A stretch of DNA of 64,000 nt from Clostridia bacterium (GCA_035381305.1 DAOSYK010000005.1:9534-73533), one strand, 5' to 3'. Shown: positions 1,734 to 11,303, counted from the first letter of the stretch. Translations and numbers: made by a program. The notes: a model not told the origin generated them from the sequence alone.

Positions 1734-3356
1734 ATGGCCGAAAACAATAAAAAAATGGTTGCTAACGCGGATTTTGAGAAGGAAAAGAACGTCATTTTGG
1801 ATATTGACAACCTTTCCTATATCTGCGATTACTGTGGTAAGGTAAATCAGATGGGAGCGCCCCGTTGTGTCCGTTGCGGCAAAAGACGTCCCCGCAGCGA
1901 GTACATAGACGCGATGAACAAAATCAAGAGCGCCAAATCCATCAAGACCGAGTATCTCGAAGAGCAGTACCAGTTCGAGGAAGAGAAAAAGGAAGCCGCC
2001 CAACAGCAACTTGTCAGGATCGTCGAAAGCAGAGTCGAAGAAGAAAAGAGGAGCATTTACGCCCAGGAAGAGCTGCGCAGAGAGCAGGAGAGAGAGGCTA
2101 TCAAGAAGTCCACGGCAAGAGACGCCGTGCTCCGCATAATCGCCGCCGAAAAAGCCGCCGAAGACAGAGTGAGAGAGGCCGAACAGAGGGCCGAAGACGC
2201 TGTCAAGGGCCGCAACAAAGAGATAGAAGGCATTGTCGAAGAAGAGCGCAAGAAGGTGCTCGAAGCCGCCGCCCAGAAGGTGGTCGCCGCCAGAGCCGGC
2301 ATTGAGGAAGCCGCCAGAGAACAGATAGAGGCCAACAAGAAGATAGCCGATAAGTTCGTAAGAGAGACCCTCGAGACCGAGCGCGACAAGGCCGAGCGCA
2401 GCGCCGCAAGAAGAGCGGTACTTCGCATAATCGCCGCCGAAAAAGCCGCCGATGAGAAGATTAAGACGGCAAAAGACGCGCTCCAGCAGGCAGCTGTCGA
2501 GAGAATAATCGAAGAAAGAACCCTCGCCGACAAGGAAGCCGCCGCAAGGTATCTTGCCGAAAAGCAGGCTATCGAGAGAGCCGCCGACGAGAGAATAAGA
2601 GCCGAAAAGGAAGTGATAAGAAAGCTCCTCGAAGGCAGACAGACCGCTTTTGCGGACGCGGGCGCGGTTCCGACTTATCAGCAGTCCGTAGCGACCGGTA
2701 TGCCGCAACAGAGCTTTGTTCAGCCGCTTACCATCGTGCCTTACGTAAACACCAATCAGCCTTTATATCAGTACAGACCCCATCAGGTCTATAAATTCGT
2801 ACCCAAGCAGACCCAACCTCAGCAGGAAGTGGGCAAAAAGGCAAAGGGCGGAAAAAACGCTCCCGCGCCCGTTCCCGCAGTCAGCGCGGCTCCCGCTGCG
2901 GCTCAGATATCGGCTCCTGCCGTTGAAAAGCCCAAGAGCGGAAGAGCGAGAGGAATGGGAATAATAACCCTTATCCTTGCCGCCGCGGCGCTTGTACTTG
3001 CACTGCTTCCTCAAATTGTTTCGGGATTCCTGCCCGACGCGGGCTTTCCCGAAATTACCGCCATCGTGGGTATAATGGACCTTGAAGGCAACGAAATGCT
3101 CAAGGTTATCGGCTTTACCGTATTTGTCGCGTTCGCGTTCATAACGGTAATTCAGAGCGTAATAAGGGTAATCAGAGGCAAAGCCGCCGCTGCAGGTTTC
3201 ATTATTCCGCTTATCGCCTGCGCAGGTCTCGGACTTAGCATGTATACGCTGGGAGAAGGAGCCCTTGCGATAATGCCCATGGTCATTGCGGGTGTCAGCG
3301 TACTTTTGCTGATATTCAGCATAATTGGCGGCGTGAAGTCAAAAAAAGCCAAATAA
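1734..3356 (+). CDS. array member A: zinc-ribbon / coiled-coil / 4-TM membrane protein, function unknown
   Basis: AGGAG 8 nt before ATG 1734 (the track ORF starts at upstream TTG 1716). CxxC-x10-CxxC zinc ribbon (CDYCGK..CVRCGK, nt 1824-1880). About 230 aa of E/A/K/R-rich coiled coil with an internal duplication. Motif VQPLTIVPYVNTNQPLYQY (2718-2774). P/A-rich linker, then four TM helices ending KSKKAK. Confidence 0.85.
   Translation: MAENNKKMVANADFEKEKNVILDIDNLSYICDYCGKVNQMGAPRCVRCGKRRPRSEYIDAMNKIKSAKSIKTEYLEEQYQFEEEKKEAAQQQLVRIVESRVEEEKRSIYAQEELRREQEREAIKKSTARDAVLRIIAAEKAAEDRVREAEQRAEDAVKGRNKEIEGIVEEERKKVLEAAAQKVVAARAGIEEAAREQIEANKKIADKFVRETLETERDKAERSAARRAVLRIIAAEKAADEKIKTAKDALQQAAVERIIEERTLADKEAAARYLAEKQAIERAADERIRAEKEVIRKLLEGRQTAFADAGAVPTYQQSVATGMPQQSFVQPLTIVPYVNTNQPLYQYRPHQVYKFVPKQTQPQQEVGKKAKGGKNAPAPVPAVSAAPAAAQISAPAVEKPKSGRARGMGIITLILAAAALVLALLPQIVSGFLPDAGFPEITAIVGIMDLEGNEMLKVIGFTVFVAFAFITVIQSVIRVIRGKAAAAGFIIPLIACAGLGLSMYTLGEGALAIMPMVIAGVSVLLLIFSIIGGVKSKKAK
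2133..2452 (+). repeat. direct repeat inside gene A (about 97-aa coiled-coil unit duplicated)
   Basis: The identical 29-mer cgcataatcgccgccgaaaaagccgccga occurs at 2133-2161 and 2424-2452, 291 bp (97 codons) apart. The peptides are AR(D/R)AVLRIIAAEKAA(E/D) in both copies. Confidence 0.9.
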
Positions 3357-3372
3357 CAACCGATTACAAATT

Positions 3373-3399
3373 GTAGCCTTATATTAAGGCTGCTTTTTT
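3373..3399 (+). terminator. rho-independent terminator after gene A
   Basis: gtagcctta / taaggctgc stem (one G-U pair), 3-5 nt loop, followed by TTTTTT (3394-3399). Confidence 0.6.
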
Positions 3400-3425
3400 A
3401 TAAGTTACCGTTTAAGGAGAAATGT

Positions 3426-4289
3426 ATGGCAAAAAAGAACGAAACACCCAATATGCCCGCCAAGAGCATTGACGAGATGACCGACATCGAGTTCATCACC
3501 TCGGCGGACTACCTTGCCAGCCCCTATTACAGGGCATACATAAGCGCAAAATCCAGACTTTCGGATGAAGCGTACCAACCCCTTTCCAAAACTTATGACA
3601 AGCCTGCAACTTCCGCAAAGAGCGCCGCTGCCCGCGACGTTCAGCCCAAAGCAGCTGCAAGGTCGGGCAAAAAGATAAAAGGCGCCGTCTACTCCAAAAA
3701 GCGCGGCGTTGCGCACTTCTTTATCACGTTATTTATGCTGGTAATTATCGCGGTAGCGGTACTCGGCTTTATAGATCTCTCTTACGGGGCGGTTTACGTA
3801 AGACCGGGCGTAACAGAGGATACCGACATCAACTTCTACCTTCTTGACCCCGTTTTCGGCGTAATTAAGAAGTTTGCCGATGTGGACCTCGATAGCTACT
3901 ACTTTGACAGCTTTGTGTCCAACTTGTCGGAAAACACCGAAATTATGGTCAAGGTCGCGCTCTACGCGGTTCCCTCGGCGGCTCTTCTTATCCTTATCTG
4001 CGCCCTTATCGGGTTCTTCAAGGGTATTGTCGCTATGTGCTCAAAGAGGCAGGCTAACGGCATGTACAAAAAGTTCAAGTTAGGATTCCTTAGCTTGGTT
4101 ATGCTTCTCAGCGCGCTTATAATGCTCGTCGGCGGAATCTTCGCCAGCGGCCAGGAAATCACCGTTATTCTTGACTTTATACTCGGCAAGACCAACGCGC
4201 TTTGCGCAGGCTACGGACTTTATGCCCTTGTCGTTCTGCCCATAATCACGTTTATCTTAAGCTGCATAGGCTATAAGAAAGCGAAATAA
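3426..4289 (+). CDS. array member B: 4-TM membrane protein, function unknown
   Basis: AAGGAGA RBS before the ATG. About 95-aa basic/Ala-Ser-rich N-terminus. TM1 HFFITLFMLVIIAVAVLGF. Loop with LDPVFGVIKKF (3840-3860). Three more TM helices, the last beginning GYGLYALVV and ending YKKAK. Confidence 0.85.
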   Translation: MAKKNETPNMPAKSIDEMTDIEFITSADYLASPYYRAYISAKSRLSDEAYQPLSKTYDKPATSAKSAAARDVQPKAAARSGKKIKGAVYSKKRGVAHFFITLFMLVIIAVAVLGFIDLSYGAVYVRPGVTEDTDINFYLLDPVFGVIKKFADVDLDSYYFDSFVSNLSENTEIMVKVALYAVPSAALLILICALIGFFKGIVAMCSKRQANGMYKKFKLGFLSLVMLLSALIMLVGGIFASGQEITVILDFILGKTNALCAGYGLYALVVLPIITFILSCIGYKKAK

Positions 4290-4315
4290 GAAAAAGCATT
4301 TACAAAAACTAAAAA

Positions 4316-4342
4316 AGAGCGGCAAATTACGGCCGCTCTTTT
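4316..4342 (+). terminator. rho-independent terminator after gene B
   Basis: agagcggc (4316-4323) pairs with gccgctct (4332-4339), 8-nt loop, then TTT. Confidence 0.6.
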
Positions 4343-4604
4343 ACGTTTGGTAAAACTTTACTTGGTCGAAAATCGCCCGTTATGGCGGGTTTTATAGTAT
4401 AATTAACATCGTAAAAACAGTTTATTGCAAGGGTAATCGGCGTCAAATTTCGCGAAAAACTTTTTGCTTTATACTATTGTAATTTTTTATATAGTATGAT
4501 AAACTATTTTATATAATAATGGGATTATGGGTTATTCTGCACTTTTGACGGAAAAACGAACGTTTTGAGCGCATATTGTCCCAAAACCCTCACAAGGTGG
4601 TAAA

Positions 4605-5669
4605 ATGGCAAACAACACGTTGGGCGGTTACAATAATTACAATGCCAGGGGATCATACCCCAATTACGGCATGCCCAATCAGCAGCCCGTAAAATCCGCC
4701 GCTCCCGTAAAGAAAAGCAAAAAGGAGCAGAAGCAGGAAGCCAAGAAGCTGCAGTCGAAGGAATACAACAAGGTCATGAGAGCTCGTCAGGAGCGCGCCC
4801 TTGAGAATATCGAGTATCGCAGAAAAGTGGAAGCGATAAACCAAAACTACGGCGGCATGGACAGGGCGATATACAAACTCGCGGCAGATGTCAAACCGAG
4901 AAAAGAAAAAGATTATTTCTTTGTCATGAGGAAAGGCGCCTGCTTTTTTACGTTTTTATTCACCCTTGTGACCATAGCCGTATTTGTCTTAAGCTACCTT
5001 AAACTCGACCTTATCCCCGCAGAATACATATCGATATACATTGAGACCGAGGCTGCCCCCGTTGAAGAGGGGGAAGGCCCCGTTGCAGAAGCGGCAGGAG
5101 AGAACGAAGCTGATGAAGAAGCGGACGAAGAAGAGGAAGAGGCAGGCTCCGATGTCCTTGCGTCCTACTCTGTTCTCGATCCCGTTTTCGGATTTATAAA
5201 GCACCTTACGGGCAAGTTCCTCAACAAGGAAGTCGTTTTGGGCGAAAGCCCCCTCTATGACGCCATGGTGGCAAAGAGCGAAGTTGGCATGGCCGACATG
5301 GTCGCCGGCATTGCGCTGGAGTACTTCCCTGCATTTATCATAATCTACATTATCACGGCGATTATCATGTTCTTCAAAGCGTTTTTCGCCATGTTCGGCA
5401 GAAGGATTTTCAAGTGCTTCGGTCTTGGAAGCTTTATTATGATACTTTGCGGCGGAGTTATGGCGCTTGCGGGTCTTGCGTTTACCACCGAGCCCGGCGC
5501 GGCAATGGCTTACGGCGACATTATCAATATACTTATCGGCGGCATTATGGGTACGGGCGGCTTTACCGCGGGATACGGCCTTCTCGGGCTTATCGTGATA
5601 CCCGTCTTGACGCTTATATTCAGCATGTTTGCCCGCAAAAAAGTGCCTTACAGCATATTTGACAATTAA
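4605..5669 (+). CDS. array member C: 4-TM membrane protein, function unknown
   Basis: AAGGTGG RBS. N-terminus is G/Y/N/P/Q-rich (GGYNNYNARGSYPNYGMPNQQP), then K/E-rich. TM1 is followed by an acidic insert (ENEADEEADEEEEEA) and LDPVFGFIKHL (5175-5195). Three further TMs, the last beginning GYGLLGLIV, tail ARKK. Confidence 0.85.
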   Translation: MANNTLGGYNNYNARGSYPNYGMPNQQPVKSAAPVKKSKKEQKQEAKKLQSKEYNKVMRARQERALENIEYRRKVEAINQNYGGMDRAIYKLAADVKPRKEKDYFFVMRKGACFFTFLFTLVTIAVFVLSYLKLDLIPAEYISIYIETEAAPVEEGEGPVAEAAGENEADEEADEEEEEAGSDVLASYSVLDPVFGFIKHLTGKFLNKEVVLGESPLYDAMVAKSEVGMADMVAGIALEYFPAFIIIYIITAIIMFFKAFFAMFGRRIFKCFGLGSFIMILCGGVMALAGLAFTTEPGAAMAYGDIINILIGGIMGTGGFTAGYGLLGLIVIPVLTLIFSMFARKKVPYSIFDN

Positions 5670-5682
5670 TAAGGAGTGAAAT

Positions 5683-5901
5683 ATGGCAAGAAAGAGCAAA
5701 AAGGATGATTTTTACGAACAGGATATGATGGAGTATTATCCCCAGGGGCCGCAACCGTTCTTCGGGCCTGTTCCGGGCATAATTCCCGTTGCTCCGCCTT
5801 CACATACCATTCAGCTTACTCCCATCATTCAGCCCATTGCGATAGTGCCTTACTCCAATCAGCAGCAGTCTGTCGCTTCGAATGATGACGACGACGAATA
5901 A
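5683..5901 (+). CDS. array member D: 72-aa soluble motif-only protein
   Basis: AAGGAG RBS, 13 nt after the stop of C. No TM segment. Carries IQLTPIIQPIAIVPYSNQQQ (motif core 5827-5868) and an acidic end, NDDDDE. Confidence 0.65.
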   Translation: MARKSKKDDFYEQDMMEYYPQGPQPFFGPVPGIIPVAPPSHTIQLTPIIQPIAIVPYSNQQQSVASNDDDDE

Positions 5902-5917
5902 GAGGAGCAAACGTCTT

Positions 5918-6607
5918 ATGGCAAAACAGCAAATGGTTGACAATGTTAAAACGACGGAAGACGTCCTTGTGCCGGTAAAACCGGCTCAGGACAATTACCG
6001 TATCCCTTTTGTCACCGAGCCGAGCGCATTTATGATGTATGGAGAAAGCGCCCTTCAGGAGTTTAACGCCGAAGTCAAACGCGTCGAGGCGGAACTTCGC
6101 CGAGAGCTTTACAGCCCTGTGGAAGAGGAAGAGGAAAGACCCGCGAGAAAGACAAGCGCATGCGCAGTAATCGCACTTATCACACATCTTCTGGTTATCG
6201 CGCTTCTCATCATCGGACGCTTTGTGACCATCGAAGCTATCCCCGGTTTATTCGGGATAGTCGCCGAAAAGTCGGGACTTGATTATGTCCTTGGCTTTAT
6301 CGACGGACTCGGAAACGGAATAGAAGTAAATCCGCTCATTACCGTAATAGGCGTTGCTATAACCGCGCTGTTCTCGGTAATCGCGTTTTTAACCTCGATA
6401 TTTACAATTAAGAAGCCCACAGGCGTATTTATGAAAGTCTGTCTGTTCCTCAGCTTTGTCGGAGCCGTGCTCACCGCCGTTATGGTGATTGTGCAGGGTC
6501 AGGAAAACGGGATAGGGCTCTATATAGTCATCGGTCTTACGTTTATCGCCGCTCTCGCGGGATTCTGCTCGAGGAGCGCAAAGCGTAAACCCACGGAGGA
6601 TAAGTAA
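5918..6607 (+). CDS. array member E: 4-TM membrane protein, function unknown
   Basis: AGAGGAG RBS, then ATG 5918 (the track ORF starts at 5882 inside the end of D). About 95-aa N-terminal region, then the same 4-TM module (..GIGLYIVIGLTFIAALAGFCSRSAKRK). Confidence 0.8.
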   Translation: MAKQQMVDNVKTTEDVLVPVKPAQDNYRIPFVTEPSAFMMYGESALQEFNAEVKRVEAELRRELYSPVEEEEERPARKTSACAVIALITHLLVIALLIIGRFVTIEAIPGLFGIVAEKSGLDYVLGFIDGLGNGIEVNPLITVIGVAITALFSVIAFLTSIFTIKKPTGVFMKVCLFLSFVGAVLTAVMVIVQGQENGIGLYIVIGLTFIAALAGFCSRSAKRKPTEDK

Positions 6608-7347
6608 TGGCAAGGCTGCACACGCAAAATTCCAACTGGAAAACCGAAGCTCCGATGCCCGGGGCGCCCGTTGTCAACGAGGTTCGCCCCCAGAATGCCG
6701 TCGGAGAAATAAACGTTGTCACCAAGGTAGTCGCCGATTATGACCCCAACAACGTAACCTACGCGAGGACAATCGTTCAGCCGATTGCCATTGTGCCCTA
6801 CAACACGACCGAACAGCCCTTGTGGCAATACCCGTCACAACCTCGATTTGAAAATCCGTCCTATGACGGTTTTGAGGAAGGCGAGGAAGCCCCGCAAATG
6901 GCGAAGAAAGCGGGAAAAGGCGTAAACGGCATAAAGATATTTATGCTTATTCTGAGCCTTCTCTACATCGCGCTTGTCGTGGTCGGAAAGTTTGTCGACC
7001 TTGAGTATCTCAGATTCGACTCCACAAGGTCGGGACTTGACATAATAATGCTTATACTGCCTGCGTTTGAGGCGGAAGAACTGGTCATTATGGACATTCT
7101 GTTCCCCGCGCTGCTCGCGGCAAGCTGTCTGTTTACGGTAATCATTCTTCTCGCTTCCCTTTTCAGCATGAAAAAGGGCGTAGGTATATTCACAAAGATA
7201 ATGGCCATACTCGCATTCCTCACTCTCGGCGGATTCGGATATTTTCTGTTTGACGGAGAGCTTGGATTCGGTTACGGCTTATATGCCGCCGCAGGGCTTG
7301 CCTTGCTCAACCTCGTGCTTGCGCTTGTGGCAAAGAGAAGAAGATAA
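6607..7347 (+). CDS. array member F: motif-bearing 4-TM membrane protein
   Basis: The ATG overlaps the stop of E (TAATG). VQPIAIVPYNTTEQPLWQY (6775-6831), acidic linker, then the 4-TM module ending GYGLYAAAGLALLNLVLALVAKRRR. Confidence 0.85.
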   Translation: MARLHTQNSNWKTEAPMPGAPVVNEVRPQNAVGEINVVTKVVADYDPNNVTYARTIVQPIAIVPYNTTEQPLWQYPSQPRFENPSYDGFEEGEEAPQMAKKAGKGVNGIKIFMLILSLLYIALVVVGKFVDLEYLRFDSTRSGLDIIMLILPAFEAEELVIMDILFPALLAASCLFTVIILLASLFSMKKGVGIFTKIMAILAFLTLGGFGYFLFDGELGFGYGLYAAAGLALLNLVLALVAKRRR

Positions 7348-7359
7348 CAAGGAGTTGTT

Positions 7360-7671
7360 ATGAAGAAGAAAAGAAACGCACCCAACATGAATTTTGCCGA
7401 CGAAAACGTGGGATTTTCCAATCCCATCCCCACGCCCGACGCGCCCGGCATCGTGCTGCCCATCCCCAACGCGACCAGGGTAGTCGATAACGGCTTCGGC
7501 AAAACGGAACTTCCGGCATATATGTGCAGAGACCAGTACGGAAGAGTGTATCAGGTTCCCGTCCATTACGGCGCGCTGCCGGTGAGCGGTCCTGTGCCCA
7601 TTCCCGTGCCTTCTCAGGCTTCTCAGGTTCAGCCTATAGTCATACCCGTTGACGATAACAAAAGAATGTAA
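7360..7671 (+). CDS. array member G: 103-aa soluble Pro-rich protein with degenerate motif
   Basis: AAGGAG RBS. No TM segment. Pro-rich. The C-terminal SQVQPIVIPVDDNKRM (7627-7650) resembles the VQPIAIVPY motif. Confidence 0.6.
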   Translation: MKKKRNAPNMNFADENVGFSNPIPTPDAPGIVLPIPNATRVVDNGFGKTELPAYMCRDQYGRVYQVPVHYGALPVSGPVPIPVPSQASQVQPIVIPVDDNKRM

Positions 7672-7699
7672 AATACAAAATTAATCAGGGAGATCAGTG

Positions 7700-8614
7700 A
7701 TGGACAACAACAATGTACAGAATATCAATAACGGCATGCCCGCGTTAGGACCTAACGGACAGGAAGGAACATGGGTGCCGGTGGACCCCGGTACACTTCC
7801 CTTCACCGTGGGCGGCTCGCCCAATCAGCCCGTTCAGGGACCCGACGGCGCCTACTACTGCGTAGCGCAGGCCTCGCCTGATTTTGCCCCCATCGCGGCC
7901 AATCAGTACAACGCCATACCCACGCCCTCGCAGATAGTGCAGCTTCCGGCGATAGTGCAGCCCATTGCTTTGGTGCCCTACACTTCCCAGAATCAGCCTA
8001 TGCTGCAATACGACCCCGGCTATAAGCCCGAGGTACCCATGGGCAACACTGCCGACCCCGTCTACCGGGCAAAACCCTATTCGGCAATAAGCGTTCTGCT
8101 CGCCCTTTTCGCAGTGGTGTCCATAGTCGCTATGTGCGTGCTCACCTGCCTTAAAGGCGCTGCGGGAATGACGGGAATAGATACTATATTCGCCTTGCCC
8201 GCAAAGTTCGGCGTGGAAATGCTCGAAAGCGTATATTACACCGAAATGTTTGCGCTCCTTGGCGAAGGTACGGAAATCCTGCTTACCATTATCGTGTGGG
8301 CTATCCCCGTAATCTTCGCGCTTCTTATCGTGTTTGCGGCAATACTTACCGTTAAGTACCTCATTAGACTTGGCGGAAGAAAGTCTCCCAGATGCTTCAG
8401 CATCCTTGCTCTTATCGGGCTTATCCTTTCGGCGGCTGTGCTTGCTGTGACAGTCTTAAGCAACCCCCTGATAGGATACACACTTGAAGCGGGCATCGGA
8501 CTCTATATAGTTGTTGCTGCGTACCTGTTACTGTTCATCTTCCCCTTCTTTGCCAAGAAAGGTGCGGTGGCAGTTGACCTCGAAGCAAGCAAGAGAGTAT
8601 ACACATACCGCTGA
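7700..8614 (+). CDS. array member H: motif-bearing 4-TM membrane protein
   Basis: GGGAG RBS 7 nt before ATG 7700 (the track uses GTG 7697). IVQLPAIVQPIALVPYTSQNQPMLQY (motif 7955-8011), then the 4-TM module with GIGLYIVVAAYLLLFIFPFFAKKG. Confidence 0.85.
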   Translation: MDNNNVQNINNGMPALGPNGQEGTWVPVDPGTLPFTVGGSPNQPVQGPDGAYYCVAQASPDFAPIAANQYNAIPTPSQIVQLPAIVQPIALVPYTSQNQPMLQYDPGYKPEVPMGNTADPVYRAKPYSAISVLLALFAVVSIVAMCVLTCLKGAAGMTGIDTIFALPAKFGVEMLESVYYTEMFALLGEGTEILLTIIVWAIPVIFALLIVFAAILTVKYLIRLGGRKSPRCFSILALIGLILSAAVLAVTVLSNPLIGYTLEAGIGLYIVVAAYLLLFIFPFFAKKGAVAVDLEASKRVYTYR

Positions 8615-8646
8615 TTTTCCCGCTTACATAATCAAAAATTTATATT

Positions 8647-8674
8647 AAAAGCGAGGACTTTACCTCGCTTTTAT
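8647..8674 (+). terminator. rho-independent terminator after gene H
   Basis: aaaagcgagg / cctcgctttt stem with loop acttta, T-rich 3' side. Confidence 0.6.
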
Positions 8675-8736
8675 ATAAATAAGGTATATTATCATATATA
8701 AAATATAAATAATTTAACAGTATAAAGGAGAATATT

Positions 8737-8961
8737 ATGGTATTCGAAAAAGTAAAGATCCTGCTTTCCGAGCAGTTTTCGGTTAACCCCGAATCAATAA
8801 CATTGGACAGTGACCTCGTTAAGGACCTCGGAGCCGACAGCCTCGACCTTGTTCAGCTCCTCATCACTATGGAGAAAGAGTTCGGCGTGGTGTTCGACGA
8901 CGAGCAGATTCAGAGCGTCAAAACCGTCGAAGATGTGGTAAACTTTATCGAATCACATTAA
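8737..8961 (+). CDS. acpP: acyl carrier protein
   Basis: 74 aa. LGADSLDLVQLLITMEKEFG contains the phosphopantetheine-attachment DSLD motif. AAAGGAG RBS. Confidence 0.9.
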   Translation: MVFEKVKILLSEQFSVNPESITLDSDLVKDLGADSLDLVQLLITMEKEFGVVFDDEQIQSVKTVEDVVNFIESH

Positions 8962-8983
8962 TTTTTATTGTTATAAATATTGG

Positions 8984-9013
8984 TTGACAATAAAAAAGCT
9001 TTTATGGTATATT
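8984..9013 (+). promoter_or_regulatory. sigma-A promoter for rpmG-secE-nusG
   Basis: TTGACA (8984-8989), 18-nt spacer, TATATT (9008-9013), with an extended -10 TGg just upstream. Confidence 0.55.
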
Positions 9014-9057
9014 AAGTAAGCACCTTATCAGGTGTAATTTTTTTGGAGGTGTCTGTT

Positions 9058-9207
9058 ATGCGCGTCAAAATAACGCTTGCTTGCTCCGAATGCAAACAAC
9101 GCAATTACGACAATTATAAAAACAAAAAGAACTCCCCCGACAGACTGGAGTTGAAAAAATACTGCAGATTCTGCAAGAAGCATACCGTTCACAAGGAAAC
9201 GAAGTAA
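9058..9207 (+). CDS. rpmG: 50S ribosomal protein L33
   Basis: Not in the ORF track (49 aa). [49 protein letters not shown] with two CxxC pairs. GGAGG RBS. In the canonical position before secE. Confidence 0.92.
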
Positions 9208-9220
9208 TCCGGAGGATTAA

Positions 9221-9535
9221 ATGGCGAAAAACGATATAAAACTGGACTTGCCCGAAGTAGTTGACGCTCCTGCGGCGTCGAATGATACTTCCAAAAAGAA
9301 AAGCGCATCCAAGAAGAGTTCGACTAAGCGCAGAAGCATTGCCAAATATTTCCGCGACATCATCAGCGAGCTCAAAAAAGTGGAGTGGGCAAAGTTCAAG
9401 AGAAACAAATCCAACAGCGGCGTAATCGCTCAGACGGGCACCGTGCTTATCGTGGTGCTGTTTTTCACCATAATAATTACGGCCATCGACCTCGGTCTTA
9501 CCGAGCTTTTGACACTGCTTCTCAAGGCCGCGTGA
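9221..9535 (+). CDS. secE: preprotein translocase subunit SecE (extended N-terminus)
   Basis: YFRDIISELKKVEWAKFKRNK followed by a single TM (TGTVLIVVLFFTIIITAIDLGL). Lies between rpmG and nusG. Confidence 0.88.
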   Translation: MAKNDIKLDLPEVVDAPAASNDTSKKKSASKKSSTKRRSIAKYFRDIISELKKVEWAKFKRNKSNSGVIAQTGTVLIVVLFFTIIITAIDLGLTELLTLLLKAA

Positions 9536-9546
9536 CAGGAGTTACA

Positions 9547-10080
9547 ATGAACGAAGTCAACAACAACGTAAAATGGTATATCATACACGTATATTCGGGT
9601 TATGAAGCGAAGGTTAAGGACAACCTTCTGAAGATGATCGAAAACAACAATCTTCAGGACTACATCTTTGAGGTTTCCTTCCCCGTAGAAGAAGACATAG
9701 TGGAGAAAAACGGCAAGAGAAAGGTCGTTGAGAGAAAGAAATTTCCCGGATATGTCTTTGTCAAGATGATATATACCGACCATATCTGGTATATGGTTAC
9801 CAATACCCGCGGCGTAACGGGATTTGTCGGCCCCCAAGGCAAAGCGCAGTCTCTCACTCAGGAAGAGATCAAGAGAATGGGACTCGAGAAGATCAGCACC
9901 GAGGACTTCGACATCATGCCCGGCGACAACGTCAGAGTTGTCAGCGGCGCGCTCGAGACCTTCCTCGGCATAGTGGAAAGCGTCTCTATGGAGAAACAGA
10001 AAGTCAAGGTTATCGTCCAGATGTTCGGCAGACAGACACCGGTCGAACTCGACTTTAACCAGATTGAAAAGATAAACTGA
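9547..10080 (+). CDS. nusG: transcription termination/antitermination factor NusG
   Basis: MNEVNNNVKWYIIHVYSGYEAKV (NGN domain) and the KOW motif GDNVRVVSGALETFLGIV. The track ORF (9385) extends through the secE 3' end in another frame. Confidence 0.93.
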   Translation: MNEVNNNVKWYIIHVYSGYEAKVKDNLLKMIENNNLQDYIFEVSFPVEEDIVEKNGKRKVVERKKFPGYVFVKMIYTDHIWYMVTNTRGVTGFVGPQGKAQSLTQEEIKRMGLEKISTEDFDIMPGDNVRVVSGALETFLGIVESVSMEKQKVKVIVQMFGRQTPVELDFNQIEKIN

Positions 10081-10180
10081 ATATAAGCCCTTACGGGTTT
10101 GTAGATAAAATGGGAGAAAGGCAAAAATCCTAAAAGTGTGCCTTTCGTTTGTACCAAGTAGTCGAAGGAGGAAACAGACT

Positions 10181-10606
10181 ATGGCAAAGAAAATCACCGC
10201 AGTAGTCAAACTGCAACTGCCTGCCGGAAAAGCGACTCCCGGACCGCCTGTAGGCAGCACCCTCGGACCGCACGGCATAGCGATTCCTATGTTCACGAAG
10301 GACTTCAATGAGAAGACTGCAAGTCAGGTCGGACTCATCATCCCCGTGATCATAACCATTTATGCAGACCGTTCGTTCACGTACGAGCTCAAGACCCCGC
10401 CGGCAGCCGTCCTTATCAAGAAGGCAGTAGGCATCGAGAGCGGAAGCGCAAAACCCAACCGTGACAAAGTCGCCAAGATAACCAAGGCGCAGATTGCGGA
10501 AATCGCCAAGACCAAGATGCCCGATCTCAACGCGGCAAGTCTTGACGCCGCCATGAGCATGGTAGCGGGTACTGCGCGCAGCATGGGCGTAGTAGTCGTA
10601 GACTAA
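10181..10606 (+). CDS. rplK: 50S ribosomal protein L11
   Basis: [44 protein letters not shown] before ATG 10181. Confidence 0.95.
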
Positions 10607-10619
10607 GAGGAGGCAGCAT

Positions 10620-11303
10620 ATGAAATACGGAAAGAAATATACAGACTCTTTGAAGTTGTACGATAGAAGCAAAGTATATGACCCCCAGGAAGCGCTGAAA
10701 ATCGTCGTTGATACGGCTAAGGCCAAGTTTGACGAAACCATAGAGCTTCATTGCAAACTGGGCGTAGACCCCAGACACGCAGACCAGCAGGTAAGAGGCG
10801 TCGTAGTTCTCCCCAACGGAACGGGCAAGACAGTAAGAGTACTTGTCATCACCAAGGGTGTGAAGGCCGACGAAGCAGCCGCCGCAGGCGCCGACTTTGT
10901 GGGCGCTGAAGAAGTCGTCCAGAAGATTCAGGCCGGCTGGGTGGATTTTGACGCGTGCGTCACCACTCCCGACATGATGGGTCTTGTGGGAAGACTCGGT
11001 AAGATCCTCGGTCCCAAGGGACTTATGCCTACTCCCAAAGCCGGAACGGTTACGATGGACGTTGCGAAAGCCGTCAAGGACATCAAAGCCGGTAAGGTGG
11101 AATACAGGGTTGACAAGAGCGCCATTATTCACTGCCCGATCGGAAAGGCCAGCTTCGGTCCCGAAAAGCTCGGTGAAAACTTCAACACCCTTATGGACGC
11201 CATCGTCAAGGCAAAGCCCGCCGCAGCTAAGGGCATATACCTTAGAAGCATCAATATCGCCAGCACCATGGGCCCCGGCATCAAGGTAAGCTACAAGATA
11301 TAA
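10620..11303 (+). CDS. rplA: 50S ribosomal protein L1
   Basis: 227 aa. [35 protein letters not shown] is typical L1. Follows rplK. Confidence 0.95.

Follow-up and report, generated by a model that had tools for sequence, protein, structure and literature searches.

Organization of the array

The stretch of DNA that we analyzed, 64,000 nucleotides (nt) from Clostridia bacterium (GCA_035381305.1, DAOSYK010000005.1:9534-73533; hereafter the window, with positions counted from its first letter), carries eight + strand genes, A to H, in tandem between glnS and acpP. Reading of the open reading frames (ORFs) from the window sequence placed all eight where the original prediction had put them. Two elements recur in the encoded proteins. 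A, B, C, E, F and H end in a module of four transmembrane (TM) helices, the 4-TM module; a peptide of ~30 amino acids (aa), the VPY box (IVQPIALVPYxxxNQPLLQY), is common to A, D, F and H and degenerate in G. The eight genes may encode a new kind of bacterial membrane scaffold. The genes and their parts are as follows.

1734-3356, + strand: gene A, 540 aa; putative zinc ribbon, long charged coiled coil with an internal repeat (AVLRIIAAEKAA), VPY box and divergent 4-TM module
1824-1877, + strand: putative zinc ribbon of A, Cys31, Cys34, Cys45 and Cys48 (CDYC...CVRC), read from the sequence
2718-2774, + strand: VPY box of A (VQPLTIVPYVNTNQPLYQY)
2946-3353, + strand: 4-TM module of A, the most divergent copy, lacking GYGLY (hydropathy and hhalign)
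3426-4289, + strand: gene B, 287 aa; conserved, predicted cytoplasmic N-terminal part (IDEMTDIEFITSADYLASPYYRAY) and 4-TM module (nt 3687-4286)
4605-5669, + strand: gene C, 354 aa; basic, helical, predicted cytoplasmic N-terminal part and 4-TM module (nt 4902-5666)
5683-5901, + strand: gene D, 72 aa; soluble, no TM segment; basic N-terminus, VPY box (nt 5827-5868) and acidic tail
5918-6607, + strand: gene E, 229 aa; conserved N-terminal part and 4-TM module (nt 6125-6604)
6607-7347, + strand: gene F, 246 aa; VPY box (nt 6775-6834) and 4-TM module (nt 6898-7344)
7360-7671, + strand: gene G, 103 aa; soluble; conserved YMCRDxYGRVYQ core (aa ~50-75) and degenerate C-terminal VPY box VQPIVIPV (nt 7627-7650)
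7700-8614, + strand: gene H, 304 aa; N-terminal beta domain, VPY box (nt 7955-8014) and 4-TM module (nt 8051-8611)
7757-7864, + strand: small N-terminal beta domain of H (GTWVPVD...GPDGAYYC), aa 20-55, from a structure model

Gene A starts with ATG at 1734, with GGAG ~8 nt upstream. The gaps between genes from C to H are 0-28 nt, and E and F overlap, the start of F lying across the stop codon of E.

Six proteins share a C-terminal four-helix module

By Kyte-Doolittle hydropathy, the six proteins A, B, C, E, F and H each end in four strong hydrophobic segments and D and G have no such segment. MAFFT aligned the six C-terminal regions as one module. It begins with lysine or arginine residues and continues with TM1, an acidic outside loop of 25-105 aa (loop 1; long as well as acidic in C), TM2 with a conserved proline, a basic inside loop of 6-15 aa (loop 2), TM3, a short loop of 6-30 aa (loop 3), TM4 opened by G(Y/I)GLY, and a lysine/arginine tail. 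The original prediction had described a module of ~135 aa in this order; the order held, while the size is in fact ~145-255 aa, as set by loop 1, and A is an outlier copy without GYGLY. No further copy of the module was found in the window.

BLASTP detected similarity between B and C (1e-10), E and F (3e-11), B and H (2e-7), F and H (2e-6), A and H (8e-6), and E and H (3e-5). We then compared profiles with hhalign, using one profile per gene built from the orthologs of other genomes. All 15 of the 15 pairs among the six proteins matched at 93.8-99.9% probability, with E values from 1.7e-7 to 1.3e-36 (the latter for B-C). The closest paralog of F was E, matched at 6e-28 over nearly the full length, and even the divergent module of A was recognized (A-F 1e-24, A-H 3e-22, A-B 3e-15). 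Such scores carry a hydrophobic bias, yet the whole module was aligned and specific positions were held in common. A shared C-terminal module in six genes, as first proposed, is thus borne out.

The inside segments (the segment before TM1, loop 2 and the C-terminal tail) carry 9-14 lysine and arginine residues, whereas the outside loops 1 and 3 carry 0-5, together with 5-26 acidic residues, and are net acidic. Because of this distribution we assign an N-in/C-in topology with cytoplasmic N-terminal halves, which fits what had been predicted for these halves. The positions conserved across the family are the proline in TM2, a GxG at TM4, a serine in TM4, an outside Asp-Pro and the flanking lysine/arginine residues. 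Loop 1 has conserved Tyr33, Asp54-Pro55 and Gly58 (numbering of the B module), and its Asp-Pro is nearly invariant (126 of 150 members). Family-wide conservation revealed no conserved charged or polar residue within the helices, which argues against a carrier, a proton path, a channel or a catalytic site and fits a structural membrane protein.

Scans of the eight proteins against Pfam and NCBIfam returned nothing above cut-off, only noise (DUF6264, HC2, zinc ribbons and 7TMR-DISM). The best sub-threshold score was that of A against DUF6264 (PF19779), at 24.3 bits with a cut-off of 31; E reached 12.3 bits and the other paralogs did not match, which places none of them in DUF6264. Among 149 homologs, Pfam gave only sub-threshold matches, to SUR7 in six, to MARVEL and DUF4064 in one each, and to DUF2207_C. 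DUF6264 and DUF4064, both uncharacterized bacterial membrane families, are the nearest by score (24.3 bits for A, 22.6 bits for one C-type homolog), but these values lie below the cut-offs of 31 and 32.1 bits and leave the other paralogs unmatched. C-type proteins matched DUF3671 along their long acidic loop 1; these matches were below cut-off and taken as compositional. Neither the window proteins nor the 149 homologs matched PMP22_Claudin, Claudin_2 or SUR7 above the Pfam gathering score, and a search of PDB sequences with the module profile returned nothing. Tetraspanins (PF00335), in which TM3 and TM4 are joined by a large outside loop bearing a CCG motif, were rejected as relatives: there was no Pfam match, and the large loop of the module lies between TM1 and TM2. 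The earlier statement that the module cannot be placed in a named family therefore holds at the sequence level.

The VPY box is common to membrane-anchored and soluble products

In A, D, F and H the box follows the pattern (I/V)QP(I/L)(A/T)(I/L)VPY-x4-5-QP(L/M)xQY, as read from the BLAST table and the alignment. With hhalign, D was linked by the box to F (6e-16), H (2e-15), A (4e-7) and G (4.5e-7). The box is a hydrophobic, strand-like peptide amid disordered sequence rich in proline, glutamine and tyrosine, and it is the best conserved stretch of the H orthologs, in which I85 and Q87-P93 are invariant. The N-terminal halves had been described in the original prediction as mutually unrelated and of low complexity. 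This was wrong: in addition to the box in A, D, F and H, the similarity between E and F and between B and C reaches upstream of the module (hhalign), and every N-terminal part shows conservation across the orthologs of its gene, that of E as LxPVKPAxDNYRIPFV...AEVKRVEAE. The box, which that reading had missed, accounts for D and G sitting in the array; since it is common to them and to the larger genes, the two belong to the set. B, C and E carry the module only, D the box only (as do G and A in many relatives), and F, H and, in this window, A carry both in one chain. No fusion of the box to a known domain was found, all 29 matches being orphan proteins of 36-72 aa.

The beta domain of H and the YMCRDxYGRVYQ core of G gave no sequence match to any family or solved structure, and the matches of the N-terminal part of A, of G and of the N-terminal part of H to eL40, uL6 and DprE1 were at chance level. 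The putative ribbon of A (CDYC-x10-CVRC) has its two CxxC knuckles at a spacing within the 8-20 residues of zinc-ribbon domains. It matched Zn_Ribbon_1 and DZR of Pfam weakly, at 11-14 bits against cut-offs of 25-27, and eL40 weakly as well, also below cut-off; it is kept in the A orthologs and resembles the ribbon of the G ortholog in the relative L004 (6.5e-8). The coiled coil of A contains an internal duplication at aa ~130-260 (ARDAVLRIIAAEKAAEDRV... and ARRAVLRIIAAEKAADEKI...), and a weak Pfam match to HC2 in this region was set aside as an effect of composition.

The modeled module is nearest to the claudin fold class

An AlphaFold2 (AF2) model of H, built with 149 homologs, had a predicted template-modeling score (pTM) of 0.71. 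Its predicted local distance difference test score (pLDDT) was >90 in the module, 80-86 in the beta domain (aa 20-55) and ~50 in the VPY box, which in this model would be unstructured on its own. The module of B alone was modeled as a four-helix bundle (pLDDT 96.5, pTM 0.91) in which loop 1 forms two short strands and two helices, outside loop 2 (that between TM3 and TM4) forms one helix, and a small cytoplasmic sheet joins the segment before TM1 to the C-terminal tail. Because the N-terminal third of full-length H is disordered, a model of the module only was needed for structure searches; a Foldseek run on the whole of H gave E >=0.4 and was not informative. With the module-only model, the first ~40 PDB matches were almost all from one superfamily and spanned the full length, with TM scores of 0.52-0.56: TARP gamma-2, -3 and -8, GSG1L, GARLH4 (LHFPL4), claudin-3 and -4, the Cav1.1 gamma subunit, MP20 and a de novo "claudin fold". 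No PDB match reached E <1e-3.

The closest structural analogue of the modeled module is hence the claudin/TARP tetraspan fold. The general features of the claudin superfamily are present by hydropathy, charge and AF2: four TM helices, N-in/C-in topology, a large outside loop 1 and a short inside loop. The likeness to the claudin/PMP22/TARP/LHFPL (GARLH)/Cav-gamma proteins includes the short strands of loop 1, the basic inside loop and the small outside loop 2. It extends to the presence of many paralogs, which in that superfamily associate laterally and bear short docking motifs on cytoplasmic tails. Claudins are marked by a W-GLW-C-C signature with a disulfide in outside loop 1. In contrast, family-wide conservation showed no conserved Trp or Cys in loop 1 of the module, so that the W-(G/N)LW-C-C signature and its disulfide are absent. 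There is also no match between sequence profiles, loop 1 is predicted to be largely helical, the docking motif of the array sits on the N-terminal and not the C-terminal tail, and the host is bacterial, while to our knowledge the superfamily has been described in eukaryotes alone. We therefore regard the module as claudin-like in modeled topology and fold class and do not file it as a member of the superfamily.

Fungal Sur7/PalI proteins are claudin-like tetraspans that mark stable plasma-membrane domains with a cytoplasmic scaffold (eisosomes, MCC), and the weak SUR7 matches in 6 of the 149 family members recall them. However, these matches cover part of the module and score far below the Pfam cut-off (e.g. 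16.8 vs 29.6 bits), and the array has no BAR-domain partner, its partners being a zinc-ribbon coiled-coil protein and VPY-box peptides. The flotillins FloT/FloA with NfeD, encoded in operons and anchored in the membrane, contain coiled-coil regions and have been proposed as organizers of membrane domains; they offer a functional analogy only, as the array lacks SPFH and NfeD domains, differs in architecture and showed no homology to them.

Another view is that the 4-TM paralogs form a hetero-oligomeric ring channel or pore, like connexin, innexin, Orai or claudin pores, with the tails gating it. Several paralogous 4-TM subunits in one operon, the nearly invariant loop-1 Asp-Pro and the acidic outside loops would suit such a pore. 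However, conserved charged or polar residues are absent from the helices, genomes differ in how many module proteins they encode (2 to 7), and the Pfam and NCBIfam scans found no ATPase, solute-binding or other transport component in the locus. The top Foldseek matches are mostly auxiliary subunits of channels, with no connexin, innexin or Orai type among the matches listed. We consider a pore decidedly improbable.

Distribution and inheritance of the locus

A word-indexed search with the module alignment gave 23 clusters, and an exhaustive HMMER search of 1.84 billion representatives gave 195 proteins at E values up to 1e-3, every one of which ends in the module. With the H alignment we obtained 130 homolog clusters, none annotated by Pfam and none from a cultured isolate; those with names were all "hypothetical protein" from metagenome-assembled genomes (MAGs) labelled Clostridia, Clostridiales, Christensenellaceae, Christensenellales or Bacillota. 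A scan of one genome per GTDB species recovered 74 loci (L-numbers below), from gut, rumen, digester and termite metagenomes and including Candidatus Stercoripulliclostridium. In ~65 of the 74 the gene order is the same, on one strand and usually between glnS and acpP-secE-nusG, and in 38 the complete glnS-acpP interval, of 6.0-9.3 kb, was available. With v for the VPY box and M for the module, the core order is A(v, ±M)-B(M)-[D(v)]-C(M)-D(v)-[E(M)]-F(vM)-G(±v)-H(vM).

One-to-one orthologs are 50-62% identical in L002 (54% for G) and 32-51% in L004, where the ortholog of A matches at 51% across aa 1-357 and ends without the module; orthologs of B range from 36 to 99%. Since such one-to-one orthologs exist in L002 and L004, the paralogs are older than the split of these species. 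The ORFs, whose conservation the original prediction had put at stake, have orthologs in relatives at 30-66% protein identity, each gene with its own and in the same order, and the proposed old resident expansion, as opposed to a recent duplication or a mobile insert, is well supported. By these comparisons the locus is ancient, core-like and vertically inherited within a clade of uncultured Clostridia, represented by MAGs of Christensenellales type.

The two elements are split and fused in different ways among the relatives. A with its zinc ribbon, coiled coil and VPY box but no module occurs in L004 and in many other genomes, the G ortholog of L004 bears an A-like zinc ribbon at its N-terminus, and G was scored as a carrier of the box in 17 of the 38 complete loci. 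E is missing in many relatives. In many genomes B and C, with the module only, are each followed by a small box-only D, while F and H fuse both. A relationship of this kind usually marks physical partners, and the pattern of these sequences suggests as much for box and module.

A termite-gut clade has the kit outside the glnS-acpP interval. It comprises five module proteins (two with Cys-rich or zinc-ribbon N-termini), one D-like protein and 2-3 copies of a box-only protein of 69 aa (MAKKNKK...PIVQPIALVPYGTQNQPVLQVEE) in tandem, two of which are identical in L080, where the proteins were classified by eye from the sequence. Because this clade keeps the kit at a different site, the genes travel as a unit. 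The tandem copies were seen in L073-L081 (termite-gut Clostridiales MAGs), for example at 10001-10514 in L080, and the box-only protein may be needed in quantity. The locus there adjoins a gene for an Fe-dependent repressor and cotJA-cotJB-cotJC. A link to sporulation through cotJABC was set aside, as the adjacency is confined to the termite clade and the promoter before C is of a predicted vegetative type.

Two loci are broken up. In L001 (GCA_900198705.1, FZPS01000068.1, 1.56 Mb) only C-D-E is present, at 8623-10687, between unrelated genes, ispH-rpsA upstream and a gene with a DAC domain downstream; the three proteins are identical or nearly identical to their counterparts in L002 (at least one residue is changed in C), where the array is full with eight genes, and the partial array reflects either a rearrangement or a chimeric assembly. 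L063 and L077 share the contig CAZTFQ010000001.1, on which glnS-A-B lies ~50 kb from C-D-(H-like)-H-acpP. This split shows that the A and B units are separable from the C-H unit.

That the genes are neighbors merely by history was also considered: they would be independent paralogs of a lineage-specific expansion, adjacent through inherited synteny near essential genes and not parts of one complex. Tandem arrays often last without physical association, and the flanking glnS, acpP, rpmG, secE and nusG are strongly syntenic themselves. However, the conserved N-terminal part and the position specific to each paralog have persisted through deep divergence, the non-paralogous D and G are retained alongside with their VPY box, the kit is intact after relocation in the termite-gut clade, and the genes are tightly packed or, as E and F, overlapping. 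We find this explanation quite improbable.

The array has a GC content of 0.49-0.54 and a GC content at third codon positions (GC3) of 0.53-0.64, close to the GC3 of 0.63-0.69 in the flanking core genes, as had been claimed. All its genes being hypothetical and unannotated, one could take it for a mobile, phage-derived or anti-phage defense island. Against this, the array proteins had no match in PADLOC and no meaningful match in PHROG, a viral-contig scan placed no relative on a viral contig, and no integrase, tRNA or repeat was found at the array borders. Its chromosomal position is fixed in dozens of species and its composition is near that of the neighboring core genes. A mobile or defense origin is in effect refuted. 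Scans of Rfam at gathering thresholds, for tRNAs and for tandem repeats likewise gave nothing in or beside the array.

Transcription signals and flanking genes

The signals around the array and the flanking genes are listed below.

1651-1679, + strand: strong promoter-like site before A, TTGAAA-17-TATAAT, a consensus match only (11/12)
3373-3393, + strand: terminator-like hairpin after A, 9-bp stem followed by a T run
4313-4390, + strand: two terminator-like hairpins after B, at 4313-4342 (palindromic) and 4375-4390
4477-4505, + strand: predicted promoter of C-H, -35 TTGTAA (4477-4482), 17-nt spacer and extended -10 TGaTAAACT (4497-4505)
8648-8675, + strand: terminator-like hairpin after H, GCGAGG...CCTCGC then TTTTAT, read from the sequence and unlisted by the consensus scan
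67-1575: glnS, glutaminyl-tRNA synthetase gene, 5' flank of the array
8737-8961: acpP, acyl carrier protein gene, 74 aa, DSLD motif, 3' flank of the array

The predicted promoter of C-H belongs to a block of ~45 nt (tACTATTGaaATTTTTtt...TATGaTAaACTaT; 4477-4540 in the window) in the 315-nt spacer between B and C. The block is conserved in 11 relatives (L002, L004, L010, L014, L021, L024, L040, L045, L056, L058 and L065), while the proteins are only 35-60% identical. The hexamers are our own reading of the spacer alignment, and by this reading the promoter would be of the vegetative sigma-A type. In many relatives an AT-rich, partly palindromic element (ATATAGTATTATCTAATATTATGTA) comes after the block and could be an operator or an element of the 5' untranslated region.

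The hairpins that had been predicted after A, B and H were all located. Together with the site before A and the conserved block before C they fit the three transcription units first suggested, and A, B and C-H as predicted units is a reasonable reading.

Downstream of acpP the order is rpmG, secE, nusG, rplK, rplA, rplJ, rplL, rpoB and rpoC. A stand-alone acpP (DSLD) lies 3' of H in every complete locus, directly 5' of rpmG-secE-nusG. No fab genes lie close to it, and in L004 it begins 24 nt past H.

A proposed membrane scaffold

Neither the module nor the VPY box appears, by sequence comparison, to fall in a described family, which would make this a new kind of system; we know of no system with this architecture, and a search of the literature found nothing relevant on a Christensenellales cluster of this kind or on bacterial claudin-like proteins. 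The reading that we favor, plausible and not far from an even chance, is a hetero-oligomeric tetraspan scaffold or envelope organizer of the membrane that is coupled through the VPY boxes to A, D and G. In the cytoplasmic membrane, the paralogous tetraspans would lie next to one another and make up a hetero-oligomeric platform, and the VPY boxes would tie its inner face to the soluble D and G and to the zinc-ribbon coiled-coil protein A, by mutual strand addition or through a common site on the modules. Such an assembly, expressed constitutively, would serve as a membrane scaffold or envelope organizer, acting in the manner of claudin strands, fungal Sur7/eisosome domains or tetraspanin webs and not as a transporter or enzyme. 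The basis for this comprises the genes and the two elements, with their conservation and synteny, and the topology and fold class; from it we infer that the proteins assemble physically, what the box does and that the whole acts as a scaffold.

A structural role is suggested because the paralogs are kept adjacent, each with its own conserved cytoplasmic head, because a strand-like motif is common to membrane-anchored and soluble products in the presence of a long coiled-coil protein, and because the vegetative-type promoter is conserved and the locus is core-like and vertically inherited. Several points weigh on the other side. Every homolog comes from a metagenome and the carriers are all uncultured. 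The AF2 model leaves the box of H at pLDDT ~50, undocked on the module of H itself. The Foldseek matches, although of probability up to 1.00, are modest (E 0.02-0.4, root-mean-square deviation 7-8 Å), and the fold, a four-helix bundle, is simple. The absence of conserved polar residues in the membrane is compatible with a large-pore oligomeric channel. Finally, loci differ in how many modules (2-7) and boxes (3-7) were detected, which means that there is no fixed stoichiometry.

The low pLDDT of the box, which lies in disordered sequence much as a docking peptide would, also suits a different explanation, namely that the box is a short linear motif recruiting one common cytoplasmic partner encoded elsewhere, with the tetraspans as anchors or auxiliary subunits. 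The partner could be a component of cell division, of cell-wall synthesis or of a chaperone/protease, positioned much as by TARP or Cav-gamma proteins, and D and G would be competitors or regulators. The invariant positions of the box in the H orthologs, the tandem copies of box-only proteins in one clade and the auxiliary subunits among the nearest structural analogues agree with this. However, none of the 29 matches has the box fused to a known domain, and the composition of the locus was kept after its move to another genomic site, which suggests a self-contained locus. We hold recruitment of an outside partner to be rather unlikely.

A bolder form of the membrane scaffold, in our estimate improbable, is that the array is the first prokaryotic claudin-fold tetraspan system, in which lateral polymers are coupled by the VPY box to a coiled-coil skeleton. 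It would then be a bacterial counterpart of tight-junction strands, eisosomes and tetraspanin webs, and would imply either common ancestry with the eukaryotic claudin superfamily or a striking convergence.

Whatever their function, the two elements suffice to define two new protein families, by which several hundred hypothetical proteins could be annotated. If the scaffold proposal is true, an order-level clade of abundant uncultured Clostridia of the gut, rumen and digesters would have a core, constitutively expressed membrane system whose components all fall outside described protein families and whose membrane subunit is shaped like the claudin-type tetraspans, a fold class discussed to date for eukaryotes only. 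It would be a test case for whether tetraspan scaffolding is older than eukaryotes or evolved twice, and would bring a new type of bacterial membrane organizer and a new short interaction motif.

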